Positions 2-15,044 are shown, counted from the stretch's first letter. The stretch is 64,000 nt of DNA from Bacteroidota bacterium (GCA_023957335.1 JAMLHC010000002.1:179441-243440), one strand, 5' to 3'. Notes: generated by a model not told the origin, from the letters alone. Numbers and translations are program-made.

Positions 2-3000
2 GAGTTTTTCTATGATTTGAAACCTGATAATGAAATGATGAAAAAACTCATTATGGCAGGGAATGTTAAGGAAGCAGGTTATCATTTTATTATCAAAGCA
101 GGAAAAGAAGTTGGAGTAGGTGATACCACTTGGATAGAATTAAGGGGTTGGAATACTTGTATGCCTTTGTTTGATTTGGAAGCAAGAGATTTTGTTGGAA
201 TGATGGTGCAGGCTTTGCCTAGCGGATTTGGAAACGGATGTGAGTGTTTGACTTGTCCTCAGGTTCAGGAACATGTTGATTCCCTTTTTAAAGAATATCC
301 TGATTTGCAATATAATCATCCAAATTATGCTAGTGTGTTGACTACATTCTTGAATAAACACTTGAATACAAATCTGAGTTTTGCTGAATACCAAACTTTT
401 ATGGAGGGTTGTGGGATGTTTAGTAGAATTGATTTACGTTCTAGTACTTGTGATTACAGAATTAGTGTTGCTTCTGGGTCGGATTGTGTAGCGCATTTGG
501 ACACTCAGTTACGGCATTTGTATGTTCAAACTTCTGAAGCATTGATGTATAGCAAAACAAAGGTGAGTGCAGACAGTATTGTCTATTGCATTGACTTGAG
601 TATGTTTGATGCTACAGGAAGGTTGTGGGCTGCCGATACATTGGAAATGATTTTAGCAGAAACAGGAAATTGCAGTGGAGCAAATAATCAGGAGGATTTT
701 GTGGGTACTTTTAGTAGGTTGTTAATCTTGACACAAACTGAACCAGCCTGCGATGGTAGAACACTGTCGGAAGTAGTGACTAACCAATCCTATAGTGACA
801 GTATTTCAATAACTTCGTATTATAGTCTAGAATGGCTTAATTATTTGAATGATAAAGATACTGGATATTATTACCAGTGGAATCATGCAGAGTTGAGTTT
901 TGCTAAGAGAGCTGATTTTGCGGATACTCTACAAGTGTGGGCATTGGCTTGTGATGATGTGCAGGAATTAGTGTTTCCTTTCCACAAGAGTGGTTATGCA
1001 GAAGGGTTTGCAGAATATGGAATTTGTAGAATTGTGGAAGAAGATACTTTCTGTAATGACTGTGAAGAGATAAGGCATGAATTAATAAAGTACCAATATG
1101 CTTTAGGAACACCATCGAATGAAAGCCCATTAAGGTATTGGACAAGTAAAGATATACGAAAAGTTTTAAAGGATAGCTTGAATGCTGACTATAGGGTTGT
1201 ATTTGAGAATGATGGTTGTCAAAATTGCCCTGATAAGAAGTTGTTTGTTTGTGAGCAATTGAGCGAGGGTGGAAATGCTTTTGCAACACTTCTAAATAAC
1301 TTATTAGCAGATGGGAATCTTTTTGAAAATCATGACTTGACATCAGATACGGCATTGTTGCGAAAGATGAATTTTACTGGAGCATTTAATAGTCCACAAT
1401 TACTGTTTAGTTCTAATATGTCTATTGATACTATTGGAGAATCTCCTGGGTGGGTTTTTGATACATTAGCTAGTTTATGGAATCTACAAATTAAGTTTAA
1501 CCAAAAAACCACTTTGAAGTTTAGTATTGTACTTGAAGGAGATGGAACTAGTTTTAGTGATATTAAAAGAATATTAAGTCTTAAACCTAAGGCAAATAAC
1601 GGTGAAGTATATAGTTTTGAGCTGGTATTATTAACAGAAAACGATGTTTTAAATGCCATTGGAGAAAGCAATGGTTTGGTGATGAGCAATTGTTGTGAAT
1701 ATAGAGAGTTGTTGTTGTGCCCAAAAACTATGAGCAGAGAAGGTTTGTACCCTGTTGCTAAACCTTGCAAAGCTGATGAAATTGCCAATGCTTGGGAACA
1801 GTCTGGAATTATGTACTTACAATATAAAGATTCCTTGCGCAGAGATTTTAAGAATAAGTATGTGGAACACTGTCTGAACAATGCTAGTGAAAATGCATTG
1901 ATGAAATACCGTGAACAACAGTATCATTATACTCTCTATCATTATGATTTGGCGGGCAACCTTATTAAAACTGTACCTCCAGGGGGTGTTGAATATTTGG
2001 ATATGAATGCATTGAGAACGGATAGTATTGCAGATGCCAGAGATGATTATGATAAGGATTTGCATGTTTTCACTAAACACGGATTGGCAAGTTTGTATGA
2101 GTACAACAGTTTGAACCAACCTGTGTGGCAAGCCACTCCTGATGGGGGTGTAAGTAAGTTTTGGTATGACCGTTTGGGCAGGTTGGTGGTGAGCCAAAAT
2201 GCAAAGCAGAAGCTGTTAGGCGATGTGTATAGCTATACTGTGTATGACAGTCTAGGCAGAATTAGAGAGGTGGGTGAAATAACGGGAGATGCGATAAATG
2301 AAGTGAGTTTGCGAGCGGAAGACGGATATGAGGAGTATTATATGGGGTGGGTTGATGCAGGCTTAAAAACCCAGATTACGCGCACTTGGTATGATGCACC
2401 CATGAGCGAAGATATTGATGATGCGTTTGGAGTGGCAGGACAACAGTATTTGAGAAATAGGGTGAGCAGTACAGCTTATTTTGAATATGCTCCTACAGGT
2501 GAATGGGAAACTGAGTTTACTCGCGCTACTCACTACAGCTATGATATTCATGGAAATGTGCATACATTAATTCAGGATTTGCCAGAGTTGGCAAGTGTGG
2601 GTCATAGGTTTAAGTATGTGAGGTATGACTATGATTTGGTAAGTGGGAATGTGAAGCGAGTGAGGTATCAAGAGAATGCAGGCGATGCTTTTTACCACCG
2701 CTATGAATATGATGCAGACAATCGTCTTGTGTTGACAGAAACGAGTTTGGATGAACGTATTTGGGATAGGGATGCAGAGTATGAGTACTATTTGCATGGA
2801 CCATTAGCGAGGGTGTTGATTGGAGAAAAAATGGTTCAAGGGGTGGATTATGCTTATTCGCTACATGGTTGGTTGAAAGGTGTGAACTCTGTGAGTTTGA
2901 ATGCGAATAGGGATATGGGAAGAGATGGTGTAAGTGGAGGAAGAAGGTATGTTGCACGGGATGCGTTTGGCTTTGCGTTGAACTATTACTATGATGCAAA

Positions 3001-5992
3001 TAGTGAGGCAGACTATGAAGCAATTGCACCAGGTGCGAACTGGAATGGAGGAAGGTTGGAAACACAACTGACAAGCGGAGCTAACCAACTTTTTAATGGA
3101 AACATAAACAGTATGGTTACAAGTGTTACTCCATTTATGGAAGGTGGACCGATGGCAACGGTGTATAGGTACGATCAGTTGAACAGGATTAAGGGGATGA
3201 AAACCTACAGGAATTTTAATCAAAGTACGAATGTGTGGAACAGTGGAGGGACGAGCAATTTCTTTGCTACAAACTATAGTTATGATGCAAATGGAAATAT
3301 ACTTTCTTTGAACAGGAACAGTGGTGATGGAAGCAAACTGGGAATGGATGCGTTGACGTATCATTACAAGGCAGGAACAAATCAGTTGGAGTATGTGGAC
3401 GATGCGGTGACTGCGGGAGAACATGAGAATGATGTGGATGATCAGGAAGAAGATAATTATGTGTATGATGCAATTGGAAACTTGGTGCAAGATGTGGCAG
3501 AAGGGATTGAAGCAATTGAGTGGAATGTGTATGGAAAAGTGCGGAGAATAGTAAGAAGTTCTTCAGCAGTTGACAAACCCGACTTGGAATTTAGGTATGA
3601 CGCGGGAGGTCAACGAGTGGTTAAGATAGTGAAAGATGGAGCCAACGAGATTGACTGGAAGTATCAGTACTATGTGCGAGATGCGCAAGGGAATGTGATG
3701 GCTACTTATGACAAGAAAAGTGTGGTAAGCGGTGATACAAGTGTGTATAGGAAGATTAATGAATGGCTAATAACTAATGAGGGAGGAACTGCATTTGGCG
3801 AGTTTGTGGATGGGGAGTTGAAGGGCGGACAATTTGACGGGGCATTGATTGAAGCTATAGTAGAATGGAGTGAAACGGAGAATGTTCTTAGTGGCTATGA
3901 TGCGTCAGACTTTTGGGGTTGGGATGCAAATATGGCATCTCTTATTATGCAGCAGATTGTTTCGTATGCAAGCCCTCCAACCGAATACGAAGAAGTGTTT
4001 GACCTTGTGTGGAACGGTGGTCTGTTCCTTTCGGTAAACGCTGCCATTGTAAACAGTTGCGGAGTGAGCACTCAGAATATGCTGCAAAACCTGCTTATGT
4101 CTGACATGTTGAACAACCATTTGCTAATGGGCTTATATACCCAAAGCGCAGGTACGTTTATAGCCATGTACAGCTCAATGGGGGGATTGCCTCCTTACAA
4201 CGCTCCGGGAATGATAAACTGGATGTGGATGAACTCCACCAACATAGGGATTGCCACAGAGATACTGAATTTTTACAGCCCAACGCAAATACAAACGGCT
4301 TTGGACGGAATGCCTTATGTGGTGATGAAGGATTTTGCGATAAACAATTTCAGCGATTTTGTGAATACAATAAATCTGTGTATGATTGCTCTTCCGGGTA
4401 ATTTCTGGAGTGGGTTCAGCAACCAGGGCATGCTGCGGGATATTATTATGAATCACAGTGCGGCAGAGTACCTGCTTGCGCTGGCAATGAGCAACGACCC
4501 TGACTTTGTGAAAAATGTGGCGGAGAATTACAGCTACCTTGTGGCGGAGGCGGTGCGCAAGCTGGACGGCATGAGCGTGGACGCCTACCTTGCCTTGGTG
4601 AGAAACCACTACGGAGACGGAGTGCTGGCGGATTTGCTTGCCGCTTTGAGCGAAGACCTTATCTTTACGCAAAAGTTTGTGCTGGATGAGCACCACCTGT
4701 ACGGCAGTAGCCGTTTGGGCGTGAAAACCCACAGGAGGGTGCTGCTGCGCAAGGAGTTTAGTATTAGTGGATTTGAGGAAGATGGCACTTATATTACGGA
4801 TGAGGTGACAGATTCGCTTGTTTATGTGGCTTCGAGTGAATACTTTTGTAGGGTGTTGGCACAAAAGCAATATGAGTTGAGTAATCATTTGGGCAATGTT
4901 CTTGCAACAGTGCTTGACCGTAGAACAGGTGTTTTTGATGAGGGAGCTGATACGCTGATGTATTATGTGGCGGATGTTGTGAGTGCTACTTTGTATTATC
5001 CGTTTGGGCAAGCAATGTTGAGTTATTCTAATATTGAATTTGCTTTTACATACGGGTTTAATGGGAAAGAGAAAGATGAAGAAGGAATGGGCGGTGGTGG
5101 TGCGACATATGATTACGGATTTAGAATTTACAATCCTCAAATTGCACGGTTTTTAAGTGTTGACCCACTCAGTTCCTCATTTCCTTGGTACACTCCTTAC
5201 CAATTTGCTGGAAACATGCCAATAATCGCTATTGATTTAGATGGTTTAGAAGAATTTGTAATTATTAGATGGTGGGAAAACGGAAAGTACAAGGGCACAA
5301 CAGTGACATATTTGCCTAACAAAGGGAGTGTGAGATTTTATAGGAACAATCCTCAATATGTTAACCATACAATGTATTTAGATATGGAATACAGTGAAAG
5401 GCAATATAATTTAATGCATGGCGGAAAAATATTTAAAACAATGAAGGTCGGAGATAAAATTTTGATTAGTGCTCTTTCAGACGAAGCGAGATCTATAATA
5501 TACAATACAGATAATAACCAGACAAAACCCAAAGAAGGTTCAATATTGACCCCAACACCTGTTAATGAAAAAGAGAGAATTAAAGCAAATCAACAAAAAG
5601 CTGCATTTAGCCCTGAGAATAATAGGTGGGGTGGAAGCGAGATAACTCCAAAAGTCACTAATTTACATTATAATACTGACAATAGTGACCCACTTGTTCT
5701 ATCGCAGAGTGTTATTGACGGGTTTGCTGCTGCGCTTCTAATTAATCCAGATTATGTAATTAGAATTACTGGGCATACAGACAATGTTGGCACTGATCAA
5801 TATAATAGAGATCTAGGATTAAGAAGAGCAGAAGAAACTAGAGATTATTTAATATCAAAAGGAATATCCCCTGATAGAATTGTAGTTGAAACACAGGGTG
5901 AGTCAAATCCTATAAGTTCAAATGAGACTAGTGAAGGCAGAGCTCAAAACAGAAGAGTAGAAATTAGTATAGAACCCCAAAGATTAAATTAA
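2..5992 (+). CDS. Rhs/YD-repeat family polymorphic toxin, 5' end outside the window; Rhs core ends at DLDGL (5234-5248); the C-terminal tip carries an OmpA-like peptidoglycan-binding domain
   Basis: The frame is open from nt 2; the listed first codon at 17 is TTG and there is no upstream stop. Many YD repeats are present (YHYDLAGNLI, YEYNSLNQPV, WYDRLGRLV, YSYDIHGNV, YDYDLVSGNV, YEYDADNRLV, YRYDQLNRI, YSYDANGNIL, YVYDAIGNLV, FRYDAGGQRV). The Rhs-associated core tail reads YDYGFRIYNPQIARFLSVDPL..PWYTPYQFAGNMPIIAIDLDGLEE. It is followed by ITGHTDNVGTDQYNRDLGLRRAEETRDYL...NRRVEISI, an OmpA C-terminal type motif. Confidence 0.9.
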   Translation, partial: EFFYDLKPDNEMMKKLIMAGNVKEAGYHFIIKAGKEVGVGDTTWIELRGWNTCMPLFDLEARDFVGMMVQALPSGFGNGCECLTCPQVQEHVDSLFKEYPDLQYNHPNYASVLTTFLNKHLNTNLSFAEYQTFMEGCGMFSRIDLRSSTCDYRISVASGSDCVAHLDTQLRHLYVQTSEALMYSKTKVSADSIVYCIDLSMFDATGRLWAADTLEMILAETGNCSGANNQEDFVGTFSRLLILTQTEPACDGRTLSEVVTNQSYSDSISITSYYSLEWLNYLNDKDTGYYYQWNHAELSFAKRADFADTLQVWALACDDVQELVFPFHKSGYAEGFAEYGICRIVEEDTFCNDCEEIRHELIKYQYALGTPSNESPLRYWTSKDIRKVLKDSLNADYRVVFENDGCQNCPDKKLFVCEQLSEGGNAFATLLNNLLADGNLFENHDLTSDTALLRKMNFTGAFNSPQLLFSSNMSIDTIGESPGWVFDTLASLWNLQIKFNQKTTLKFSIVLEGDGTSFSDIKRILSLKPKANNGEVYSFELVLLTENDVLNAIGESNGLVMSNCCEYRELLLCPKTMSREGLYPVAKPCKADEIANAWEQSGIMYLQYKDSLRRDFKNKYVEHCLNNASENALMKYREQQYHYTLYHYDLAGNLIKTVPPGGVEYLDMNALRTDSIADARDDYDKDLHVFTKHGLASLYEYNSLNQPVWQATPDGGVSKFWYDRLGRLVVSQNAKQKLLGDVYSYTVYDSLGRIREVGEITGDAINEVSLRAEDGYEEYYMGWVDAGLKTQITRTWYDAPMSEDIDDAFGVAGQQYLRNRVSSTAYFEYAPTGEWETEFTRATHYSYDIHGNVHTLIQDLPELASVGHRFKYVRYDYDLVSGNVKRVRYQENAGDAFYHRYEYDADNRLVLTETSLDERIWDRDAEYEYYLHGPLARVLIGEKMVQGVDYAYSLHGWLKGVNSVSLNANRDMGRDGVSGGRRYVARDAFGFALNYYYDANSEADYEAIAPGANWNGGRLETQLTSGANQLFNGNINSMVTSVTPFMEGGPMATVYRYDQLNRIKGMKTYRNFNQSTNVWNSGGTSNFFATNYSYDANGNILSLNRNSGDGSKLGMDALTYHYKAGTNQLEYVDDAVTAGEHENDVDDQEEDNYVYDAIGNLVQDVAEGIEAIEWNVYGKVRRIVRSSSAVDKPDLEFRYDAGGQRVVKIVKDGANEIDWKYQYYVRDAQGNVMATYDKKSVVSGDTSVYRKINEWLITNEGGTAFGEFVDGELKGGQFDGALIEAIVEWSETENVLSGYDASDFWGWDANMASLIMQQIVSYASPPTEYEEVFDLVWNGGLFLSVNAAIVNSCGVSTQNMLQNLLMSDMLNNHLLMGLYTQSAGTFIAMYSSMGGLPPYNAPGMINWMWMNSTNIGIATEILNFYSPTQIQTALDGMPYVVMKDFAINNFSDFVNTINLCMIALPGNFWSGFSNQGMLRDIIMNHSAAEYLLALAMSNDPDFVKNVAENYSYLVAEAVRKLDGMSVDAYLALVRNHYGDGVLADLLAALSEDLIFTQKFVLDEHHLYGSSRLGVKTHRRVLLRKEFSISGFEEDGTYITDEVTDSLVYVASSEYFCRVLAQKQYELSNHLGNVLATVLDRRTGVFDEGADTLMYYVADVVSATLYYPFGQAMLSYSNIEFAFTYGFNGKEKDEEGMGGGGATYDYGFRIYNPQIARFLSVDPLSSSFPWYTPYQFAGNMPIIAIDLDGLEEFVIIRWWENGKYKGTTVTYLPNKGSVRFYRNNPQYVNHTMYLDMEYSERQYNLMHGGKIFKTMKVGDKILISALSDEARSIIYNTDNNQTKPKEGSILTPTPVNEKERIKANQQKAAFSPENNRWGGSEITPKVTNLHYNTDNSDPLVLSQSVIDGFAAALLINPDYVIRITGHTDNVGTDQYNRDLGLRRAEETRDYLISKGISPDRIVVETQGESNPISSNETSEGRAQNRRVEISIEPQRLN

Positions 5993-5993
5993 T

Positions 5994-6758
5994 ATGAAAA
6001 TAATACTTGTTTTAACTTCAATTTTTATTTCGTTTTTATTGGGATTTTCATTTCGAAATCACCACTTTAATAAATTAAGCGCTTCTAATTCTGCCAAAAT
6101 GCAAATTTCCAACGTTGATACAAGCAGGTTTGAAAACGTTTTAGAAATGTATGAAGATATATTCTCTGAAAACTTAAGGATAACTGATATCTATATTGAT
6201 AGTTTATTTTGTTACCCAAACATGAGAGACAGTGAAGACATAACATCAGACCCATATATGACTTTAGAAGACTACTTCTATAATAACTGTATCATTGCAT
6301 TAAAAATGGTTAATATTGACAATACTAAAGATATTTTTAGTATTAATAAAAACGGATTCTGTACATTGATAATTGAAAAGAATAAAGAAAAACTAAGGAA
6401 AATAACATATTTAAATAGTGGAATTGAAACAATCGTTAATATAGGAGAATTGGATGAAATAAGTGTGCATAACACTATAAATGGGGATACTGTTGGAAAT
6501 GCCCTATGGATTGATAAAAACTCAAAGCTTACTCGATTATATCAAAACAATTTAGATTCTTTCAGTATAAACTATGTTAAGGTAAATACAACATTTGATA
6601 CAGTGAAAAACAATAGCCCTTTTGTTGAAGTAAATACAACCACAATTGTAACAAATCCTATAAAATATGGCTTTGACTACTTTTTCGATAATAATAATAA
6701 TACTGTTAGAAAAAGAACTCATTTTAATGGCGATTCTATTTCTACTATTCAGAGGTGA
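5994..6758 (+). CDS. putative cognate immunity/partner protein of the resident Rhs tip (imm1), signal-anchored
   Basis: The ATG lies 2 nt after the rhs stop. The N-terminus is hydrophobic (MKIILVLTSIFISFLLGF). The ORF is very AT-rich and shows no enzymatic motif. Function is assigned by position only. Confidence 0.55.
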   Translation: MKIILVLTSIFISFLLGFSFRNHHFNKLSASNSAKMQISNVDTSRFENVLEMYEDIFSENLRITDIYIDSLFCYPNMRDSEDITSDPYMTLEDYFYNNCIIALKMVNIDNTKDIFSINKNGFCTLIIEKNKEKLRKITYLNSGIETIVNIGELDEISVHNTINGDTVGNALWIDKNSKLTRLYQNNLDSFSINYVKVNTTFDTVKNNSPFVEVNTTTIVTNPIKYGFDYFFDNNNNTVRKRTHFNGDSISTIQR

Positions 6759-6766
6759 AGGGGGTA

Positions 6767-6794
6767 GGTAGTGTTGTAGATGTGTTGATTTTAC
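6767..6794 (+). repeat. G/T-rich cassette-junction motif, type 1 (GGTAGTGTTGTAGATGTGTTGATTTTAC)
   Basis: 26 of 28 nt are identical to 8701-8728. It shares the 14-nt core GGTAGTGTTGTAGA with 6805-6818 and with the reverse complement of 12158-12171. Confidence 0.8.
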
Positions 6795-6801
6795 ATTTTA
6801 A

Positions 6802-6821
6802 CAAGGTAGTGTTGTAGATTT
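6802..6821 (+). repeat. G/T-rich cassette-junction motif, type 2 (CAAGGTAGTGTTGTAGATTT); left arm of a perfect 20-bp inverted repeat
   Basis: Its exact reverse complement, AAATCTACAACACTACCTTG, is at 12155-12174. Confidence 0.85.
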
Positions 6822-6892
6822 GGTGTTTTGAGAAAAACCAGAACTTAACCTACTAAAAACCAAAGAAAAGTATCTTTCAGCAATAACAAAAA

Positions 6893-6918
6893 AGCGGATA
6901 TAAAGTCCGCTCATTTTT
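6893..6918 (+). terminator. Rho-independent terminator after imm1
   Basis: The stem is AGCGGA / TCCGCT with loop TATAAAG, followed by CATTTTT. Confidence 0.6.
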
Positions 6919-6946
6919 CTAATAAAATCATTTAAGAAAAACTTTT

Positions 6947-7012
6947 TATCTTCGCTCTACCAAACATGAGAAATTACCATCAAAATACCGCCAGTTTTTA
7001 CAACCCGTTTGG
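6947..7012 (+). repeat. conserved class-A orphan leader plus first codons (TATCTTCG..ATG..SFYNPFG); inverted partner at 11923-11988
   Basis: Hand alignment against the reverse complement of 11923-11988 gives 55 of 66 identical positions. It contains TATCTTCG, one mismatch from the Bacteroidota -7 box TAnnTTTG, 11 nt upstream of the ATG. Confidence 0.75.
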
Positions 7013-8036
7013 TAGTAGTATGATGGGGTATTCTAATGAGGAATTTGCTTACTCCTATGACTTTAATGGTAAAGAGACAGACGATGAAACAGGATTGCAG
7101 GATTATGGAATGCGTATTTATAATAAAGCTTATGGTAAGTTTTTGAGCGTTGACCCTTTGACATCATCGTATCCTTGGTACACACCTTATCAGTTTGCAG
7201 GAAATAAACCGATTAGATATATTGATTTGGATGGTTTAGAGGAATATGATGTTATAATTTGGCTGGGAGCTGACGGAGTATATAGAACAAGAATGCACTT
7301 AATTAATGAAGAAGGGCCTTTGAAAGTAAATTATTATGCAAGAAAATTAGCACACACAGAACCAATGGACGGTCTTCCTGGGAAACCACCTTGTCCTGAT
7401 TGCGCACCGCAAAAGAAGCAATCTACAGATGAACTTATAGTCTCAAAAACTGTAGGTGAAAATGGTGTCACTGAGAATAATATTTGGGCGACTGATAAAA
7501 TGAAAAATCATACAGAAGGGGCTAATAGCGCAGCTAATCAATCTATTAACAATGGAGTAGTATTTTCAGACCCGGGTTTTAATGGAACAATAGTTACATC
7601 AATTCAAGTTAGACGCACTCTAAATACAATAGAAACACCAATTATTAAAAGATCTACTTGGGAAGAAAAAGGAGGTGGTACCTTTAGAAATGCAACAGAT
7701 AGTGAGATTAATAGTTTCTTTAATAATAATACACTTATGGATAAAGCTTTGAAAAAGGTTAATACTTACAAGAATCCCACAGTATATGTTGCAACAGAAG
7801 AACACTTGGTCGCACTTAAAAAACGAAATGATGAACTCGGATTAAATATCAAAATTGAAGTAAATCCTGCAAAGTTAACCCCGTCATTTACTAATGTAAC
7901 AAGTTATTATTTTGCTTTCGAATATGAAGAGGGAACTACAACTAGTACTACCACCACCACTACAACTACCACCACCACGGCTACAGTAACAGAAGAAGGA
8001 GTAACAAATAACACACCAACAACTAGAACAAGATGA
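6966..8036 (+). CDS. orphan Rhs C-terminal toxin cassette, class A (A1): short Rhs core tail plus unknown toxin domain with a poly-Thr tail
   Basis: The ORF opens MRNYHQNTASFYNPFGSSMMGYSNEEFAYSYDFNGKETDDE..YGMRIYNKAYGKFLSVDPLTSSYPWYTPYQFAGNKPIRYIDLDGLEE. This parallels residues of the resident Rhs core tail. About 260 aa with no motif I recognise follow, ending in TTTSTTTTTTTTTTTAT. Confidence 0.75.
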   Translation: MRNYHQNTASFYNPFGSSMMGYSNEEFAYSYDFNGKETDDETGLQDYGMRIYNKAYGKFLSVDPLTSSYPWYTPYQFAGNKPIRYIDLDGLEEYDVIIWLGADGVYRTRMHLINEEGPLKVNYYARKLAHTEPMDGLPGKPPCPDCAPQKKQSTDELIVSKTVGENGVTENNIWATDKMKNHTEGANSAANQSINNGVVFSDPGFNGTIVTSIQVRRTLNTIETPIIKRSTWEEKGGGTFRNATDSEINSFFNNNTLMDKALKKVNTYKNPTVYVATEEHLVALKKRNDELGLNIKIEVNPAKLTPSFTNVTSYYFAFEYEEGTTTSTTTTTTTTTTTATVTEEGVTNNTPTTRTR

Positions 8037-8713
8037 AAATGAAACTTATTATATTGTTTGGACTTGCGATTTGCAATTTAAACTGTCAAGGTTCTTTAGT
8101 ACAATCTATTTCAAAAGATACTAATAAAGAAGATAAATTAATATTTTACCATGCTGATTGGGCTGAGTTTGTCTTAATAATTGTGAAAAAATCACCTGTT
8201 TTAGACACTGAAATTCCTTTATCATGCAGAAATGGCAAAAGCAATAAAAGGCTCATAAATGAAGACAAAGGAGATACTACTTTTTTTTATGTATCTGAAC
8301 ATAAATTATCCTTTAAAGAAAGGGATATTCTTTTTAAAGATAGCTTGATTCAATTTAAGGGATATAGATTTGTTGATTTAAAAGAAATTGACACAGGTAT
8401 TATATCAGATAAACACAGGATGAGTGTTACCTGTTTTGAATGTATATTAGACACAATCTATGACTCTACATTTAAACTCAATTTTCAAGGCAACCACTAT
8501 GAAACTTATTTTTTAGAAAATATAGAATGTATATTTAAATCAAATGAAAGGTTTTTTATGTCAAGTTATCCAATTCAAAATTATTATCAAATACCTCTTT
8601 CAATTGGTTACTTACTTAATGTTGGATTATTCACAGGTTTGGTTTCTGTATCTGATGAAGAAGGGTTTTTTATAGATTGGAGCGAGTTGTCATGGAATTT
8701 GGTAGTGTTGTAG
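8033..8713 (+). CDS. putative immunity lipoprotein for A1 (imm2)
   Basis: ATGA start/stop overlap with A1. The signal peptide has a Cys (MKMKLIILFGLAICNLNCQG). Function is assigned by position only. Confidence 0.55.
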   Translation: MKMKLIILFGLAICNLNCQGSLVQSISKDTNKEDKLIFYHADWAEFVLIIVKKSPVLDTEIPLSCRNGKSNKRLINEDKGDTTFFYVSEHKLSFKERDILFKDSLIQFKGYRFVDLKEIDTGIISDKHRMSVTCFECILDTIYDSTFKLNFQGNHYETYFLENIECIFKSNERFFMSSYPIQNYYQIPLSIGYLLNVGLFTGLVSVSDEEGFFIDWSELSWNLVVL

Positions 8714-8728
8714 AGTTGTTGATTTTAC
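8701..8728 (+). repeat. G/T-rich cassette-junction motif, type 1 (GGTAGTGTTGTAGAGTTGTTGATTTTAC)
   Basis: 26 of 28 nt match 6767-6794. It contains the imm2 stop codon (TAG 8711-8713). It ends 5 nt before the stop of the first minus-strand gene. Confidence 0.8.
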
Positions 8729-8733
8729 CTTAC

Positions 8734-9291
8734 TCACCATTTATGAAAATAAGAATCAATTTGTTTTTTTGTTTTTATTATTCTCATCCCATTTATTCCT
8801 CCATAAAAACGAATATTTGGAATGCTGTCTAACTTTCCTCTTTTAAAATAATAGTAATCATTTGGAACAGTATCTTTATATTTACTTTCTATCCGCATTT
8901 TAGAATTTACTGAATCCTTGCTCATTTCAAATACATTGTCGTTATATATAAGACAAACATAAATCCATTCAGATGCAGTTTGATGAGTTTGAATAAAACA
9001 AAAAGTATCATTATTCTTTAATAAAACAGTATCTAAATCGGAAGTTTCTAAAGCATGATTTAAGACTTTGCTAAACTTACTAATTTCGTTTTTTTCTTGT
9101 TTTCTATTACTAAAAAAGTATCTTAGTCCTTTCCTTTTGGGTGAGATAGAACGAATATGCTTTTTGAAAATATTAATTGAAACATCTAATATGTCCCCTT
9201 CTTTTTTTTTCTCATTAATTTGTGAAGATGTAAGAGAAAAAAAACTTAAAGTCAATATTGTAATTAAGTAAAAAAAAAGTTTTTTAATCAT
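8734..9291 (-). CDS. putative immunity protein for B1 (imm3), secreted
   Basis: The longest ORF runs to 9345. The ATG at 9291 gives a typical signal peptide (MIKKLFFYLITILTLSFFSLTSSQ) and overlaps the B1 stop by only 8 nt. Confidence 0.5.
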   Translation of the reverse strand: MIKKLFFYLITILTLSFFSLTSSQINEKKKEGDILDVSINIFKKHIRSISPKRKGLRYFFSNRKQEKNEISKFSKVLNHALETSDLDTVLLKNNDTFCFIQTHQTASEWIYVCLIYNDNVFEMSKDSVNSKMRIESKYKDTVPNDYYYFKRGKLDSIPNIRFYGGINGMRIIKTKKQIDSYFHKW

Positions 9292-10357
9292 ATTTAAAAG
9301 GTGATTGAGAATGATAATTAACCCAAATAAATTCTTGAAATTCACTACCCATAGGAGAGTAATCTAGTAATCCATTATATCCAGGATTAACAATTTGAAT
9401 TAATGTGGTTGTATGTACATCAAAAGTAGAATAGCTACCTGTTGAAGTTTTTTGAACTAATTGACCTTTATAATTTCCTAGCTTATCTTTATCTAAACTA
9501 TAATGGGTTCTTAATGGGTAACCATGCTCCAGTCTAATTTGATTTTCAACATGAACTGCAAATACTTCTGAATATGGTATGGTCTCACTATTATATCCTT
9601 CTGTGGAATACCATATTTTATCTGGGTTAAGTCCGAAAACATTTTGTGATTTATTGTAATGATAATCCCAAGCATGCCCGAGTTCATGTCCTAGTACTAA
9701 AAAAGGATCCATTGGTGTATTTACAAAATCATCTCCTTTTGCTACAGGTACATTAACTACCACATTAGGATTCCACCCGACTGTTTTAGCATCTACATTA
9801 TAGTAATTTCTTCTTCCATTTTTACTCTGTCTCGTTATTAGTAATGAACTTTCCATTGAGTGTAAATCATCAATCATCATTTTACCTATTGGGCCAGTAT
9901 ATAACCTATTTAATGCCTGTACAGTTTCGCAAATTACATTATCATTTCCATCATAATCTATTCCTGGGGTATATATGTATGTTCCTGTCTTACTACTTGC
10001 ATCAGGAATTTTTATTGTATCACCCGCCACATCGCTAAACCAAATTGGATTATTCGCAAAGGCAGCATAAACAGAAATACTTGGATTAGGTTTTGGGTCA
10101 ACATTCCACCTCCTACCCAACCTAGCATCATACTGCCAATACTCCGCACTATAAGAATTTCCTTTCCCATAAATCTCATCATCTTTCTCTTGGGTATTCA
10201 TACCGTACGAGTAAGCAAATTCAGAGTTAGAATACCCCATCATACTCATACCGAACGGGTAATACATTACAGCCTCCCCCAACCCCTCCAAAGGAGGGGA
10301 GTATTTCCCCCTTTTGGGGGGATTAAGGGGGGCAGTTATTTGACCGCTTTTTTGCAT
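9284..10357 (-). CDS. orphan Rhs-tip toxin cassette, class B (B1): HExxH zinc-metallopeptidase-like toxin
   Basis: Rhs homology begins at VMYYPFGMSMMGYSNSEFAYSYG (in-frame ATG at 10267). The class-B core terminus is YDARLGRRWNVDPKPNPSISVYAAFANNPIWFSDVAGDT. The toxin part has LVLGHELGHAWDY (HELGH, 9674-9688). The first ~30 codons of the listed ORF run through a GC-rich hairpin element and are probably not coding. Confidence 0.7.
   Translation of the reverse strand: MQKSGQITAPLNPPKRGKYSPPLEGLGEAVMYYPFGMSMMGYSNSEFAYSYGMNTQEKDDEIYGKGNSYSAEYWQYDARLGRRWNVDPKPNPSISVYAAFANNPIWFSDVAGDTIKIPDASSKTGTYIYTPGIDYDGNDNVICETVQALNRLYTGPIGKMMIDDLHSMESSLLITRQSKNGRRNYYNVDAKTVGWNPNVVVNVPVAKGDDFVNTPMDPFLVLGHELGHAWDYHYNKSQNVFGLNPDKIWYSTEGYNSETIPYSEVFAVHVENQIRLEHGYPLRTHYSLDKDKLGNYKGQLVQKTSTGSYSTFDVHTTTLIQIVNPGYNGLLDYSPMGSEFQEFIWVNYHSQSPFKYD
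10273..10333. repeat. GC-rich nested-hairpin element (REP/MITE-like) immediately 5' of cassette B1
   Basis: Hairpin 1 is CCCCTCC-AAA-GGAGGGG (10283-10299). Hairpin 2 is CCCCC-TTTT-GGGGG (10307-10320). They are flanked by CCCCC (10276-10280) and GGGGG (10327-10331). The surrounding DNA is AT-rich. Confidence 0.6.
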
Positions 10358-10483
10358 GGTGTTTTCAATGTCAAAAGTAGGGATTTTTTGCCTTGCTTAT
10401 CATAGTAATCTCTTAATCACAAAAAATCACAGTTTAGACACTTCCACAAAACCCCCAATCTGATACATTACCTACATTACCCA

Positions 10484-10975
10484 TTACCATATTTTATGTA
10501 CATTCCTCCAATACAATATCATTGAATCATTATTATTGAATTTAAAGTATGCATTTTTATTACTTACATGTATGTTATACCACACATTTTTCTCGAATCC
10601 AAAACTCAAAGTGTCAGTAATAATATGCTTTCGTGTATCCGTCCACTTGTAATTAGAATTAGTCTTGAAGAAATGTATATATTTTTTCGCTTTATGATTT
10701 TCAGATTTCAGACTAGCAAAACACAATTTTACTATATCATATTTAGCAGGAACTCCTTGAAAACAAAAAGAATCAACACTAAGTTCACAAACTGTAACCC
10801 CTTCTAATTTGCAGTTGCTTTTAATATATTCTCTTGTTATTTCAAATGAGCAACTTTTTGCAAAATAGCCCATGTAAATAAGATAGCATGAACTAAGAGA
10901 GCAACACAAGAAAATTAAAATTATCTTATCTGGTCGCACTATCCTTAGCAACTTTAAGTATTTTTTGTTCTGCAT
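10484..10975 (-). CDS. putative immunity lipoprotein for A2 (imm4)
   Basis: The ORF is open to 11014. Plausible starts are the ATG at 10975 (MQNKKYLKLL..) or the GTG at 10939 (V-RPDKIILIFLCCSLSSC, lipobox-like). It overlaps the end of A2. Confidence 0.5.
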   Translation of the reverse strand: MQNKKYLKLLRIVRPDKIILIFLCCSLSSCYLIYMGYFAKSCSFEITREYIKSNCKLEGVTVCELSVDSFCFQGVPAKYDIVKLCFASLKSENHKAKKYIHFFKTNSNYKWTDTRKHIITDTLSFGFEKNVWYNIHVSNKNAYFKFNNNDSMILYWRNVHKIW

Positions 10976-11969
10976 TTCGTTTAAATTCATATCCTTTTCC
11001 TTTATAACTATCAATTGTTACTCTTGGGTCTAGCATATCCTTAGGATTGTTCTTATCTAATCCTAGTTTTTCCATTTCACTGATTTTCCATTCTTTGTAT
11101 CTTACTAACATGCCGAAAAACATGCTTGCAGTATACGCAGAATTAACAGCTTCGTCACTTGCAGGTCTTCCTGTTATATTATCAATTCCTCTTTTATGTC
11201 TTTGTTCTGTAACTCTATTATAGTAAGCATCCCAGCCTTCTATTGCTGCTTTATCACCCGGTAAAGTCCTTACATCTTCTAACCAACAAAAAGTTCCAAG
11301 GTCTTCTTGGTCGCGGTCGTGTGTGTATGCGATAGCATCAACTTCATCAATTGGGTTTATAGACCAGTCATAGCTGTTATAGGCTTGTACATCTTTATGA
11401 GGTCCAAAAATTGTTTTTGCCCCCTCGCCTTGAAAGAACCCATGTCTTCCTATAGCACTTATACTAAGTCCTCCTCCTTGAGCTATCTCCATTTCCTCAA
11501 CTTCATCATATATTTCACCATTTGCATTTTCAAATTGATAGATATATTTTACTCCCCTACCTTCGGGTCCAAAACTTTCCGAATACTTTTCATAATTAAA
11601 TCCTTCGATATCTCTGTAATCACACACGTCTATTATTACTGGAGCATTCCCATCAATTATTTTCACAGTATATGTAATATATTCTGCACCTTCCAAGTCG
11701 ATTCCGTCAATAGGTCTATTTCCTGCATATTGATAAGGTGTCCACCAAGGGAACTTGCCAGCTTTAGGGTCACGTGACTTGAATCTAATAATTCTAGGGT
11801 CATAATCCCTATATTCAAAAGCATAAGAATTTCCATCTCCTGCTATTTCGCTATCCATATATTGTCCACCGAACCCATAAGCATAGCTAAACTCCGCGTT
11901 GCTGTAAGCTTGCAGGGTGCTTCCGAACGGGTTGTAAAAACTGGTAGTATTTTGGCGTTGTTTTCTCAT
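10926..11969 (-). CDS. orphan Rhs C-terminal toxin cassette, class A (A2): Rhs core tail plus unknown toxin domain
   Basis: The ORF opens MRKQRQNTTSFYNPFGSTLQAYSNAEFSYAYGFGG..YRDYDPRIIRFKSRDPKAGKFPWWTPYQYAGNRPIDGIDLEGAE. About 250 aa follow, containing NPIDEVDAIAYTHDRDQ. Confidence 0.75.
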   Translation of the reverse strand: MRKQRQNTTSFYNPFGSTLQAYSNAEFSYAYGFGGQYMDSEIAGDGNSYAFEYRDYDPRIIRFKSRDPKAGKFPWWTPYQYAGNRPIDGIDLEGAEYITYTVKIIDGNAPVIIDVCDYRDIEGFNYEKYSESFGPEGRGVKYIYQFENANGEIYDEVEEMEIAQGGGLSISAIGRHGFFQGEGAKTIFGPHKDVQAYNSYDWSINPIDEVDAIAYTHDRDQEDLGTFCWLEDVRTLPGDKAAIEGWDAYYNRVTEQRHKRGIDNITGRPASDEAVNSAYTASMFFGMLVRYKEWKISEMEKLGLDKNNPKDMLDPRVTIDSYKGKGYEFKRNAEQKILKVAKDSATR

Positions 11970-11988: not shown

Positions 11989-12098
11989 TGGATTTATTTA
12001 GAAAGGCTCAATACAAGTTATTTCGGATGTTTTTTCTAAGAAAATGAGGGAGGTCGCAGGGGTTGTTATTCAAACCCTGATTTTTTGACACCAAGCAC

Positions 12099-12124
12099 AA
12101 AAAAAGCCCCGAACTGGCAGGGCT
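12099..12124 (-). terminator. Rho-independent terminator after imm5 (minus strand)
   Basis: On the minus strand the stem is AGCCC / GGGCT with a 10-nt loop, followed by a run of six T. On the plus strand it is followed by TAAAAA, so it is strand-specific. Confidence 0.55.
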
Positions 12125-12154
12125 TAAAAATATATTGATGTGTAATCTTTCCTA

Positions 12155-12174
12155 AAATCTACAACACTACCTTG
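12155..12174 (-). repeat. G/T-rich cassette-junction motif, type 2; right arm of the perfect 20-bp inverted repeat
   Basis: AAATCTACAACACTACCTTG is the exact reverse complement of 6802-6821. It spans the imm5 stop codon (12167-12169). Confidence 0.85.
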
Positions 12175-12997
12175 AAATTATCTGACATGCTTTGAATTCT
12201 ACAACATCAATTAAATGATAGTTAATATCCTTATTGTCAATGCCATAGTATTTTTTCTTATCATCGAAATATGAACTATCATAATTTATAAATTTCAGAA
12301 CATAAATACTGTCTTTAAAATAAATCAATATGGTGTTATTTTTAACGACTTCTGCTTTTAAGTATGATACCCATTGAGCATAATTTTTTGTATATACTAC
12401 ATCGTGATAGTTTTCTTCAATTACGTACTCACATGTAGCATTAAGATATTCATCTAAATAATATTCAAGAGTTGAAATTGAATCAATTAACTTTATTTCA
12501 CTGTAATTACGCATAACTTCGTTATGTCCTCGCATATATGAAAATAAGATGTCCTTTGATAACTTAATACTTTCGTTTGTAGGCAAATTCAGGTAATTTA
12601 TAATTTTCTCAATTTCTCTTGTTGCAAAAGAAAAACGAATGTTTTCAGAGCCACCAAATAAAGTAATATCAAAGTCGTTTTTGTAATACAATTCAGATAT
12701 ATCAGAGTCGAAATACAACATATTTGCTGAAAATATTGAAATATAATTCCAATTACTGTCCAATGCAATAAACAGGTTCGCAAAATAGCTATGACGAACA
12801 GTATCTGACATTTCAATAATTTTTAATTTGTCGTTGAACATGATAAGTGTGTCTGTCGGTGTAAATCTACTGACATACAAGCTGCAATAATCAGGTACTA
12901 CAATTTTTGATTCTTCTGAGACATGTTTAACCTTTTCGACACATGAAACCATGTTGAAACCAAGCACATAAATCAGTACGCAAATTTGAGTTTTCAT
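12167..12997 (-). CDS. putative immunity lipoprotein for B2 (imm5)
   Basis: It starts 12 nt after the B2 stop. The signal peptide has a Cys (MKTQICVLIYVLGFNMVSC). Function is assigned by position only. Confidence 0.55.
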   Translation of the reverse strand: MKTQICVLIYVLGFNMVSCVEKVKHVSEESKIVVPDYCSLYVSRFTPTDTLIMFNDKLKIIEMSDTVRHSYFANLFIALDSNWNYISIFSANMLYFDSDISELYYKNDFDITLFGGSENIRFSFATREIEKIINYLNLPTNESIKLSKDILFSYMRGHNEVMRNYSEIKLIDSISTLEYYLDEYLNATCEYVIEENYHDVVYTKNYAQWVSYLKAEVVKNNTILIYFKDSIYVLKFINYDSSYFDDKKKYYGIDNKDINYHLIDVVEFKACQIISR

Positions 12998-13009: not shown

Positions 13010-13975
13010 TCAGTTCTGGTGCTTATAAATATTGATTGGTTCTGTTTTATACCTAAGTAAGTAAGCACTAAAATAATATTGATGAAAACCAATAAATAAA
13101 TACTTGTCCTTAATGTCCTTATATTTTGGGTCTTTACTTTTTCGCAAATCTGCATAAGACTTTGGCAATCCCTTTTCATAAGAACTTAAAAACCTTTCAG
13201 AACCTGATAACATTAAATTTTGTCCAACTTTAGACTCAACGGTATGGTCATCTCTATTTATTAACAGGCATTTATTATCAAGACCCCAATTGAACTTAAT
13301 TGCTTTTAGATAGCCATGCCCCGTTTCATGAACTATCGAATTAGACATGACAAGCGTTGAATTGTTTTTCATTGCTTCTGTAAATTCACTATAATAAATA
13401 ACACTTCTATTACTGAAATTCACGCCCCTCACTCCATGAGAATAAAAACTTTCAAAAGAAATATAGTGGTCTGTTTCGTTGAGTTTGATTTGGTCAAATG
13501 TCAAAGTTGTTTCTTCTACTACAACATTAAGATTATTATCCCTGTACATCAGCTCTAAATCCTTAAATAGTCGGTTTTTATAAGCATCAAAATTTTTATT
13601 CATCTGCTCTTCTGTCCAACCTTTATCTTTGTTTGCTTCCGAATATCCCTTTTTCAGTTCTATAGTATTTACAAAAACAGTTGTATCCCCCGCCACATCA
13701 GTAAACCAAATCGGATTATTCCCAAAACAAGCATAAACACTAACACTTGGATTTGGTTTTGGGTCGTTGTTCCAACGCCTTCCCAGTCTGCTGTCATACA
13801 TCCAGTATTCCGCACTGTATGCACCTTCAAAGATTTCATCATCTTTGAGTTGTCCGTTTTGTCCGAAGGAATATGAGAACTCCGCGTTGCTATAACTCAT
13901 CATAGAGCTTCCGAACGGATAATAAAGAAATCCGCTTTGAGCCTTAGGTAGATATGATGTTAGAGGATGCATCAA
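13010..13975 (-). CDS. orphan Rhs-tip toxin cassette, class B (B2): HExxH zinc-metallopeptidase-like toxin
   Basis: The Rhs homology reads GFLYYPFGSSMMSYSNAEFSYSFGQNG..YDSRLGRRWNNDPKPNPSVSVYACFGNNPIWFTDVAGDT. The toxin part has SIVHETGHGYL (HETGH, 13316-13330). The listed start is a TTG inside the 3' end of the integrase gene, so a genuine independent start is doubtful. Confidence 0.7.
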   Translation of the reverse strand: MMHPLTSYLPKAQSGFLYYPFGSSMMSYSNAEFSYSFGQNGQLKDDEIFEGAYSAEYWMYDSRLGRRWNNDPKPNPSVSVYACFGNNPIWFTDVAGDTTVFVNTIELKKGYSEANKDKGWTEEQMNKNFDAYKNRLFKDLELMYRDNNLNVVVEETTLTFDQIKLNETDHYISFESFYSHGVRGVNFSNRSVIYYSEFTEAMKNNSTLVMSNSIVHETGHGYLKAIKFNWGLDNKCLLINRDDHTVESKVGQNLMLSGSERFLSSYEKGLPKSYADLRKSKDPKYKDIKDKYLFIGFHQYYFSAYLLRYKTEPINIYKHQN

Positions 13976-15044
13976 TTGTCTGTTTATCTGACAAAATTAA
14001 CATTTTTTGCGCAAATTTATCATGTATTTTTGATAATTCTTCGTCCATATAACTTTGGCTATGCTCCACATATTTATAAAACTCTTTTGAACCTGGCGCA
14101 TGACCACTTATCTTCCTAACCAAATTTTCTTCTAGCCCTAACCTTAACAATGTTGTTACAGTTGTTCTTCGCATACAATGGCTAGAAATCAAATCACAAT
14201 AGCGGTAATGCTTTCTATTATTTCGTTTAATCTCAAATGGCTTACCTCTTCTCATTCTTATTTTTGGAACTTCGTGTGTCCAACCTGCTTGTTCTGTCAA
14301 CAGCTTTATATTCAAATTAAACAGGCTGAGTGCAGGGAAGGGAAATAGGGTTTTGCGTTTTTTATCTCTGTATTTCTCAATAATTTCTATTGCATAATCT
14401 GGAAGCATGATTCTTGTTAGGGTTTGTGTCTTTTGTGATAGGTTTACAATGTAATAACGATTACCAATTATTTCTAAATTATGGCTAGTTAACCTCTTTA
14501 AATCCGAATACCTTAACCCAACAGTACACCCAAACACAAAAAGATCCTTTGTCAAGCTCAGAGACATAGGTAAGCTTGATTCAAATTCTTTTGAATGAAT
14601 CAGGTAGTTCAACATTTCGGGTTCCAACACAATGATTGGAATGGCTTCGTTTGACACATAAAACTTTTTAAAGTATTGCCCTATAATCATACCCATATCT
14701 ATAGAAAGCCAATTTAAAAAAGCTTTTAGCAACTTAATATTCTGACCCACATAGTTGTCTGTATAGCCTTGTTTGTTGTACAAGAAGTCAGTAAATGAGG
14801 TATAGAATGATTGCCAATACTTCTGTACTTTTTTCTTTTCCCGTTCATTTGCCTTGCTTACTTCATAAACAAAAAGCTCAAACCCAGAATGGGCTACAAA
14901 CTTCTGTAATACCCTAGAAAGCATTTCATAGTTTAGATTTGTACTGGCAACTATGGAAGCACCATTGGTTTTTCTTCTTCTCTTAATTTGGTTGTGCCTA
15001 ATAAATTTTACTAATAGAGGCAACATTGCGTGTTCTTTAATCAT
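13944..15044 (-). CDS. tyrosine-type site-specific recombinase/integrase
   Basis: The C-terminal catalytic domain pattern is present: GLRYSDLKRL (Arg), SSHCMRRTTVT (HxxR), ISGHAPGS (His), EFYKYV (Tyr). The N-terminal part resembles Bacteroidota phage-integrase SAM-like domains. Confidence 0.85.
   Translation of the reverse strand: MIKEHAMLPLLVKFIRHNQIKRRRKTNGASIVASTNLNYEMLSRVLQKFVAHSGFELFVYEVSKANEREKKKVQKYWQSFYTSFTDFLYNKQGYTDNYVGQNIKLLKAFLNWLSIDMGMIIGQYFKKFYVSNEAIPIIVLEPEMLNYLIHSKEFESSLPMSLSLTKDLFVFGCTVGLRYSDLKRLTSHNLEIIGNRYYIVNLSQKTQTLTRIMLPDYAIEIIEKYRDKKRKTLFPFPALSLFNLNIKLLTEQAGWTHEVPKIRMRRGKPFEIKRNNRKHYRYCDLISSHCMRRTTVTTLLRLGLEENLVRKISGHAPGSKEFYKYVEHSQSYMDEELSKIHDKFAQKMLILSDKQTIDASSNIIST

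Follow-up and report, generated by a model that had tools for sequence, protein, structure and literature searches.

Organization of the rhs locus

The stretch of DNA analyzed here (the window) comprises 64,000 nucleotides (nt) from a Bacteroidota bacterium (GCA_023957335.1 JAMLHC010000002.1:179441-243440). It carries a main rhs gene, five toxin-tip/immunity cassettes arranged in two convergent arrays and a gene encoding a tyrosine recombinase (Table 1). This work concerns two short DNA elements that recur in this locus: the junction box J, found at the 3′ end of putative immunity genes, and the site S, found at the start of the Rhs-associated core. The two arrays converge at 8714-8734, and their guanine-cytosine (GC) content is 32.5%, compared to 37.9% in the flanking genome (15500-64000). 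In L091, the full product of the main rhs gene is 3705 amino acids (aa) long. The orphan toxins each begin at position 1 of TIGR03696 (RHS repeat-associated core), with a start that reads (F/Y)Y(N/Y)PFG. The immunity genes are labeled as such putatively, from their position and the signal-peptide-like N-termini of their products; these proteins matched no family in domain searches.

Table 1. Positions in the window of the genes, J copies, S sites and terminator-like hairpins of the locus.
Feature	Position	Strand	Remarks
Main rhs gene	17-5992	+	3′ part, N-terminus beyond the window; RHS repeats; own toxin tip with OmpA-like domain
S, main rhs (TATTATCCGTTTGG)	4994-5007	+	Contig joints 4997>7003, 4998<>10259 (inverted), 5004<>11908 (inverted), 5004>...>6767
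imm1	5994-6758	+	Cassette gene
J copy c1	6767-6804	+	Core 6767-6780 plus TGTGTTGATTTTACATTTTAACAA; 8 nt past the imm1 stop
J copy c2	6802-6838	+	Core 6805-6818; long form GGTAGTGTTGTAGATTTGGTGTTTTGAGAAA; followed by spacer and terminator-like hairpin
Terminator-like hairpin	6893-6911	+	Between c2 and the tox2 leader
tox2	6966-8036	+	Cassette gene
S, orphan tox2	6999-7012	+	Contig joints; core-domain start
imm2	8033-8713	+	Cassette gene
J copy c3	8701-8728	+	imm2 stop is its second TAG; 5 nt from the convergent imm3 stop
imm3	8734-9345	-	Cassette gene
tox3	9284-10357	-	Cassette gene; Peptidase_M91
S, orphan tox3	10251-10264	-	L001 identical to the window up to ...CCCGTTCGG, then divergence
Fifth J copy	10442-10488	-	GGTAATGTATCAGATTGGGGGTTTTGTGGAA at 10442-10474, profile E = 0.0006; partial repeats GGTAATG and GGTAATGTA at 10475-10488
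imm4	10484-11014	-	Cassette gene
tox4	10926-11969	-	Cassette gene
S, orphan tox4	11923-11936	-	Contig joints
Terminator-like hairpin	12104-12125	-	Between c4 and the tox4 leader
J copy c4	12144-12174	-	Core 12158-12171; imm5 stop is its first TAG; matches c2 20/20, then divergence
imm5	12167-12997	-	Cassette gene
Degenerate half-copy GATGTTGTAGAATT	12195-12208	-	Inside the coding sequence of imm5, at its 3′ end; c4 lies about 40 nt downstream
tox5	13010-13975	-	Cassette gene
S, recombinase-proximal tox5	13911-13924	-	Cassettes differ from here on; several contigs end here
Tyrosine recombinase	13944-15044	-	366 aa; Pfam Phage_integrase

A conserved box at the end of the immunity genes

A first-pass annotation of the window had reported a 14-nt core repeated four times at the ends of immunity genes. 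An exact search of the 64 kb confirmed that this 14-mer, GGTAGTGTTGTAGA, is present in exactly four copies, three on the plus strand (6767, 6805 and 8701) and one on the minus strand (12158-12171), for an expected count of 0.14; none of 100 shuffles reached four copies, and allowing up to two mismatches over the 64 kb yielded no extra copy. The two subtypes distinguished in that annotation were also recovered: 6767-6797 and 8701-8731 are 90% identical, and 6802-6821 matches 12155-12174 at 20 of 20 positions in inverted orientation, within unrelated surrounding DNA. A fifth, diverged copy that the annotation lacked (GGTAATGTATCAGATTGGGGGTTTTGTGGAA, 10442-10474, minus strand) lies 3′ of imm4. 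It is preceded by left-half partial repeats (10475-10488, minus strand), the first of which (GGTAATG) includes the imm4 stop TAA. Alignment of the five copies and of variants from related contigs defines J as a box of about 31 nt with the consensus AGGTARTGTnnYAGATTnGGnGTTTTG. The 14-mer GGTAGTGTTGTAGA is the left half of one subfamily of this box, and the same genome holds a second subfamily, characterized by GGTAATGTATCAGA. In a search of the 64 kb with a J profile, the five array copies were the sole matches at E ≤ 0.002, and the following one had an E-value of 5.4. The variants of related contigs include GGTAATGTTTTCAGATTAGGGGTTTTGTG in L001, GGTAATATTTCAGATTTGGGGTTATCAC in L092, a c2-like form in L104 and TAGTGTGGTAGATGTGGTGTTTT in X2.

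All five copies lie on the sense strand of the immunity gene, 0-14 nt from its stop codon. Their relation to the coding sequence differs from one gene to another, as the first reading had noticed: (i) after imm1, J is non-coding, the TGA stop (6756-6758) lying 8 nt before the first copy, (ii) imm2 ends with ...W N L V V L and stops at the second TAG of the motif (8711-8713), and (iii) imm5 ends with ...S R and stops at the first TAG (12167-12169, minus strand). More generally, the immunity stop is the TAR of GGTAR in c4, in L001, in the imm4 copy and in one copy of L038, and it is the second TAG in c3; the TAR and TAG triplets of J provide stops in two frames. The use of TAR as the stop makes these cassette ends no less compact than those of integrons.

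The half-copy proposed at 12195-12208 (minus strand) matches the core at 11 of 14 positions, including the exact 9-mer TGTTGTAGA. This 9-mer occurs only six times on both strands of the 64 kb (four times in the motif, once in the half-copy and once at an unrelated place), which makes the half-copy plausible, with marginal significance. The accompanying suggestion of a paired-site arrangement is disfavored, as the spacing varies: tandem copies are 38 and 40 nt apart in the window and 9/16 nt apart for the imm4 copy, and related contigs add values of 22, 24 and 36 nt. Such a variable spacing points to out-of-register joins rather than to phased binding sites.

Edges and flanks of J in metagenomes

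The region was found in metagenome runs from wastewater, sludge, bioreactors and soil. For a housekeeping protein encoded in the window, the close relatives that bear names come from metagenome-assembled genomes labeled Bacteroidia or Bacteroidota. In at least 11 contigs, homology to other samples begins exactly at the first G of J. This left-edge breakpoint was observed at 6767 in at least six contigs (three from X2, one from X5, two to three from X6 and one from X7), at 6805 in at least three contigs (two from X2 and one from X5) and at 10472 in X1, X2 and X6. The DNA located 5′ of J varies between contigs that share J. The 38-nt module of c1 reaches a depth of about 443 in X2, compared to about 40 for single-copy flanks (approximately tenfold), and its left flanks are various. 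In one X6 contig, the match is limited to 31 nt (10442-10472), the DNA on either side being unrelated.

The right edge of J is also a breakpoint. At least three continuations of c1 were found. Its next element is c2 in the window, X2 and X7 contain two other sequences at this place, and in X2 c1 is also joined straight to 6925; the corresponding 120-nt indel (6805-6924) begins at c2. Comparison of the imm4-J-leader3 segment of the window with the immA-J-leader3 segment of L001 revealed unrelated immunity genes, J copies that are about 83% identical (5-6 of about 34 positions differ) and a leader of about 190 nt that is 100% identical and precedes different toxins. Furthermore, in diverged X2 contigs spanning 6805-6954, no substitution affects 6805-6838, compared to 15 variable sites in 6839-6915; the chance that all 15 sites miss 6805-6838 is about 0.02 if sites are independent. 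J forms an island of identity whose neighbors, immunity genes on one side and spacers on the other, are unrelated, and homology starts at the first base of J in other metagenomes, which corroborates the earlier proposal that the conservation bears on the DNA rather than on the protein. The homology breakpoints at both of its edges likewise agree with the proposed role of cassette-boundary marker.

Switching of toxin tips at S

S is the 14-mer TAYTAYCCGTTYGG. Its translation, YYPFG, corresponds to the first residues of the Rhs-associated core (TIGR03696, Rhs_assc_core). Contigs from other metagenomes join the main rhs gene (4997-5004) to tox2 at 7003 on the same strand and to tox3 (10259) and tox4 (11908) on the opposite strand; another contig joins it, at S, to an unknown cassette whose end is 6767. 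The four independent joints at 4997-5004 are located at the left edge of a region of homology of about 250 nt (74-83% identity) and none inside it, which indicates a site-specific exchange. At ten places carrying a 100%-identical recombinase, the sequence is the same through TATTATCCGTTYGG and then differs, or the contig ends. Recombinase lineages that are 92% and 61% identical show the same break at S, or their contigs stop short of the array. A near-isolate run examined for the Limnovirga soli locus proved to contain a relative at low coverage, in which no joints were seen. Toxin switching happens at S and not at J, and S together with the recombinase looks like a shufflon-type toxin-switching system. 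The literature that we searched holds no description of recombinase-driven switching of Rhs tips, an absence that is no proof of novelty.

Two other observations concern S. A contig from a sludge metatranscriptome (X25) corresponds to 13695-13927 and carries a tox5-like cassette fused to the main-rhs core at S. Further RNA contigs of X25 cover imm1, tox2, imm3, tox3 and the recombinase gene; together, these contigs suggest a low-level expression of the orphan modules. Besides, in most other lineages a strongly conserved box, AAGTTCTTTGAAA, lies about 45-60 nt upstream of the PFG site of orphan cassettes (L017, L020, L022, L038, L041, L047, L048, L054-L056, L059, L061, L068 and others). It is generally not found in main rhs genes, with similar sequences in coding regions of L020 and L061, and it is absent from the window lineage.

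J in distant lineages

The exact 14-mer was not found in any of 80 distant recombinase loci; with up to two mismatches, these loci gave nine matches, compared to about 7.5 expected by chance according to our own estimate. Among 31 pattern matches in Joint Genome Institute (JGI) metagenomes, two are relatives of the window and 29 are unrelated sequences devoid of any Rhs-core match, which is about the chance level. The exact 14-mer is lineage-specific.

A box homologous to J is nevertheless present in a distant lineage. In L038, a Chitinophagaceae metagenome-assembled genome whose recombinase is 46% identical to that of the window, CGGTAAWGTGCYAGATTA follows the immunity stop at all four internal junctions, one of which is tandem with copies 24 nt apart. 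The immunity genes and linkers of L038 have no similarity to those of the window lineage. Shared cassettes were rejected as the cause of the likeness, the L038 immunity genes being unmatched in this lineage. The strict pattern GGTAA[AT]GT-N(1-10)-YAGATT has six matches in 1.06 Mb for 0.66 expected (maximum of three in 50 shuffles), four of them being L038 junctions; this pattern was tuned after L038 had been seen, so that the enrichment figure is somewhat favorable. A looser family pattern has 25 matches in the distant loci for about 20 expected and is unenriched; only the strict pattern is enriched, owing to L038. L047, L048 and L056 carry possible single copies of J, which are unproven.

These distributions bear on the idea that J is a passive relic of an ancestral 3′ flank or linker, devoid of function of its own, with copies kept alike by gene conversion or because they hitch-hike when cassettes undergo homologous recombination. 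The coexistence of two distinct subfamilies (GGTAGTGTTGTAGA and GGTAATGTATCAGA) in one genome, the confinement of the exact 14-mer to this lineage (two of the 31 JGI matches being relatives) and the absence of J from most related arrays would fit this explanation, which we nonetheless consider improbable. Indeed, the core is kept in L038 despite unrelated immunity genes, linkers and leaders and a recombinase that is only 46% identical, and J is more conserved than the adjoining spacer among close strains. Furthermore, 14-31 nt does not exceed the length that efficient RecA-dependent exchange requires.

The recombinase and other features of the arrays

The AlphaFold model of the recombinase has a predicted local distance difference test score (pLDDT) of 92.9, and its best structural matches, which extend over almost its full length, are XerA, the integrase core of Tn1549, XerH and Cre. 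According to this model, the recombinase is a simple two-domain enzyme of the Cre/XerH type without any separate arm-binding domain. A profile search of PDB sequences with the recombinase gave no match. The family is a large one, with 1257 protein matches at E ≤ 1e-5, and 324 stretches from GTDB species genomes, retrieved with an alignment as query (a single recombinase protein had returned nothing), encode a relative of this recombinase, almost always beside cassettes that begin with the Rhs core end. In most of the 80 loci examined, the recombinase gene is flanked by a main rhs gene and at least one inverted core-end cassette. The named relatives (among the top 120 protein matches and the 80 loci) mostly belong to Chitinophagales/Chitinophagaceae and to other non-Bacteroidales Bacteroidota, and none is labeled Bacteroidales.

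An element located at the recombinase stop (AACAYCATATCTRCCTAAGGCTCAAA, 13941-13975) is identical at 26 of 30 positions to a sequence of L129 (10320-10350) that does not encode a recombinase there. A part of it, GCCTAAGGC, is kept at 61% protein identity, and the whole element may be part of a recombinase-proximal site. In L133 (11127-21068) and L135 (1-9939), recombinases that are 69% and 61% identical lie beside an operon encoding proteins of 748, about 400, about 200 and more than 2300 aa. These proteins have no Pfam matches; the operon may specify the delivery apparatus and the shell gene of these systems.

Within the arrays, the toxin tip of the main rhs gene ends with an OmpA-like peptidoglycan-binding domain (5273-5992), and tox3 (9284-10357) encodes an effector of the Peptidase_M91 family. 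The lipoprotein-like N-termini of the putative immunity proteins suggest periplasmic targets. The C-terminal end of tox2 (7935-8036) is a threonine-rich, low-complexity tail, TTSTTTTTTTTTTATVTEEGVTNNTPTTRTR, with near-tandem ACTACAACTACC repeats. The leader and N-terminal extension of tox3 (10265-10357, minus strand) contains runs of G5/C5 (CCCCCCTTAATCCCCCCAAAAGGGGGAAATACTCCCCTCCTTTGGAGGGGTTGGGGGAGG) inside an array with 33% GC, with a folding z-score of -4. It is 100% kept in L001 (13004-13100), although the flanking cassettes of the two samples differ. Finally, an 11-nt insertion at 12055 (GCACGGAGGTG), found in an X1 contig and in L097, duplicates CCGTGCCACCT in tandem (minus strand) and constitutes a strain marker in the tox4 leader.

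Possible roles of J

We tentatively favor, at somewhat less than an even chance, the reading that J is the downstream boundary joint of the toxin-immunity cassettes and the counterpart of the repeated intergenic motif of rAID-1 arrays. If exchange took place at S only, an immunity gene and its downstream linker would stay together; the different combinations observed at J therefore require a second class of joints, at J itself. From this we infer that J takes part in recombination. The agent could be the neighboring recombinase, another protein or short-homology recombination. In such a scheme, S would be the upstream boundary, at which a cassette is attached to the main rhs gene by flipping or splicing, and J would be the downstream boundary wherever something is joined after a cassette. 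The immunity frame would end in or just before J, and a variable linker (a spacer, sometimes a terminator, and a leader) leading to the next cassette would start past it. Repeated joining of cassettes or linkers at J would leave J on both products, and out-of-register joining would generate tandem or partial copies. This role would resemble that of the repeated intergenic motifs of rAID-1 or of the attC sites of integrons, as these are thought to work.

Several observations weigh against this proposal. Some concern the distribution of J: most multi-cassette arrays of this recombinase family have no box at the immunity stop (L040, L061, L067 and L079), J is missing from terminal cassettes (imm3, immB of L001, immC of L002 and both array ends of L038), and one internal junction of L093 is devoid of it. 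Others concern its sequence. Local alignment of J with the five S sites gave no similarity beyond that of shuffled sequences (p = 0.23-0.98); J lacks the dyad symmetry of the core sites of tyrosine recombinases; the gap between its two conserved blocks differs by 1-5 nt (L001 and L038); and the linkers between J and S have no consistent attC-like fold, with z-scores of -0.6 and -1.4 for two c-type linkers. Stronger folds were found in the tox3 leader with its G5/C5-rich runs (z = -4.0) and at an L038 junction (z = -2.2), and neither of them pairs J with S. The contigs are another point. None shows a rearrangement with a crossover at J, compared to the abundant joints at S; the imm2-J-imm3 junction is identical in L091-L095, and the imm5-J junction is the same in L096 and L097, neither junction varying among the samples that carry it. 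It should also be emphasized that the population evidence consists of assembled metagenome contigs from mixed strains, not of clonal reads, and that differing arrangements do not reveal the timing or the mechanism of the changes.

A binding or crossover site of a recombinase was one of the candidate roles listed in the first-pass annotation. In this explanation, J would be a core-type site of the adjacent enzyme, copies in opposite orientations (8701 on the plus strand and 12158 on the minus strand) would invert the segment between them, and pairs of copies would form a two-site synapse. The inverted c3/c4 pair does bracket imm3-tox3-imm4-tox4, and the array would be consistent in either orientation. 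The length of J, about 31 nt, is similar to that of lox, dif and sfx sites, and the reverse complement of the recombinase-stop element is loosely J-like (L129 versus c2, nominal p = 0.005). However, alternative c3/c4 junctions appear in no contig, including in the samples that hold these copies, and all the rearrangements seen in contigs are located at S, the consistent partner of this recombinase family, which J does not resemble. J has no inverted-arm symmetry, the spacing of its tandem copies is not fixed, most loci of the family are devoid of J, and the likeness to the recombinase-stop element is lost on correction for 36 tests. A recombinase crossover site thus seems improbable. Three related candidates were rejected: (i) a degenerate S, the short matches GTAATGTAT (imm4 copy and S3) and TTTGGTAGT (c3 and S2) being within chance, (ii) the reverse complement of the recombinase-stop element, for which two of 36 tests gave nominal hits (p = 0.005 and <0.0025), a result that is not robust, and (iii) an arm-type binding site, which is unsupported because the recombinase model has no arm-binding domain and aligns over almost its full length with the two-domain enzymes Cre, XerH and XerA.

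J could instead be a cis-acting expression signal at the 3′ end of the immunity gene, acting in the mRNA or in the DNA, rather than a recombination joint. A linear GU-rich motif of the 3′ untranslated region and a protein-binding site are two forms that this signal could take. It would ensure a clean end of translation and serve to process the immunity message or to insulate it from the silent cassette located downstream, and it would occupy the boundary because it is needed there. We regard this as rather unlikely, while noting that it accounts for the constant location of J on the sense strand, 0-14 nt from the stop codon that it often supplies, for the terminator-like hairpins that follow two copies, for the tolerance of a variable spacing between blocks and for the occurrence of J only where another cassette follows. 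A metatranscriptome contig also covers 6730-6971 unchanged, and J is probably transcribed with imm1 if that RNA library is clean. However, J matches no Rfam family and its alignment gives no consensus base pair, and the Bacteroidetes -7 box TAnnTTTG is matched by c2 alone. In such a signal, truncation and tandem repetition (c1 and the partial repeats at the imm4 copy) would be odd, as would the location of c3, jammed against a convergent gene, and a signal by itself leaves the breakpoints at both edges of J unexplained. A promoter was also rejected, a sigma-70 scan being at background (44 found for 45 expected).

Returning to J as a downstream joint, a broader proposal can be made, which we hold to be unlikely as a whole: S and J would be the two ends of a self-contained hybrid between an integron and a shufflon, dedicated to toxins and widespread in environmental Bacteroidota. 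At S, its Cre-like recombinase would join cassettes to the rhs shell gene by flipping them, while J, used by the same enzyme or by a partner, would serve in the capture, stacking and exchange of whole units between arrays and genomes. In polymorphic toxin loci, slow homologous recombination is the usual explanation for the gain, order and switching of tips. In the present locus, each cassette is precisely delimited by two short DNA elements, and the adjacent recombinase belongs to a dedicated family with hundreds of relatives in Bacteroidota genomes. Should J prove to be a working joint, the arrays would amount to a programmable system of cassettes for weapons used between bacteria, as integrons are for resistance genes, and J and S together would provide a simple signature of cassette ends, and hence of new toxin-immunity pairs, in metagenomes. 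If J is an expression signal only, it would still be a useful boundary marker, and the main interest would move to the switching at S.

Relation to known systems

The rAID-1 arrays described by Ross et al. combine a recombinase with repeated intergenic motifs (10.1101/471110, PMC12247911). They are defined by at least two co-oriented genes downstream of the recombinase gene and by a GC content that is below that of the genome and is 41% or lower; the published criteria also include a recombinase at least 44% identical to BF9343_RS08045 and a Bacteroidales host. The locus of the window resembles these arrays in several respects: (i) a predicted XerD-like tyrosine recombinase heads the array, here the Phage_integrase protein with a Cre/Xer-like fold encoded at 13944-15044 (minus strand), (ii) six genes are co-oriented with it (tox5, imm5, tox4, imm4, tox3 and imm3), as are the short genes of polymorphic-toxin immunity type in rAID-1, and GC is low (32.5% compared to 37.9%), and (iii) repetitive intergenic motifs, described as integron-like for rAID-1 and published there as a figure, are present, a part played here by the five copies of J. 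By contrast, rAID-1 arrays consist of orphan immunity genes, whereas those of the window contain pairs of toxin tip and immunity gene, each starting with Rhs_assc_core (TIGR03696). The array studied here is also one of two convergent arrays, and opposite it lies a full-length rhs gene that receives tips by splicing at S. The hosts differ as well: Bacteroidales for rAID-1, and here an uncultured wastewater Bacteroidia bacterium whose relatives mostly belong to Chitinophagaceae. Since none of the above-mentioned named relatives of the recombinase is labeled Bacteroidales, a close membership in rAID-1 is disfavored.

As in integrons, a tyrosine recombinase gene adjoins compact cassettes, a conserved element lies at or contains the stop codon at the 3′ end of cassettes, and the S located after the recombinase stop differs from the J of cassette ends, as attI differs from attC. 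An attC site is an imperfect palindrome that forms a hairpin bearing R''/R' core sites; no such palindrome exists in J, and an attC fold is likewise absent from the linkers. The last cassette is devoid of J, the cassettes have their own leaders, and the recombinase gene is co-directional with one array instead of being divergent as is IntI, which is accompanied by attI and the Pc promoter. The recombinase scores 22 bits against the NCBIfam XerA/integron-integrase model, whose cut-off is 220, and the IntI structure 2a3v ranks 36th or lower among its structural matches, behind XerA, XerH and Cre.

The likeness to the R64 shufflon (Rci, sfx) concerns S only: short asymmetric sites in both orientations lie beside a tyrosine recombinase gene, and a constant gene receives alternative C-terminal segments through inversion. 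In contrast to the shufflon, the variable parts are toxin tips that each have an immunity gene, J has no counterpart, and inversion is suggested by arrangements that differ from one metagenome contig to another.

Finally, the locus shares with orphan rhs and contact-dependent inhibition (CDI) arrays (e.g., those of Salmonella; PMC3967940, PMC3482391) the presence, downstream of a full-length rhs gene, of silent toxin-tip/immunity modules that have the core-end sequence in common with this gene; in those arrays, cassettes are exchanged through homologous recombination. Zhang et al. (PMC3482391) also noted that polyimmunity loci often adjoin XerC/D recombinases. The window differs from the classical arrays by its breakpoints, which are sharp at S and not spread through the homology of about 250 nt. 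To our knowledge, no conserved 3′ boundary box like J has been described in these arrays. Also unlike them, the present system involves a dedicated recombinase family that is found with inverted cassette pairs in hundreds of genomes.

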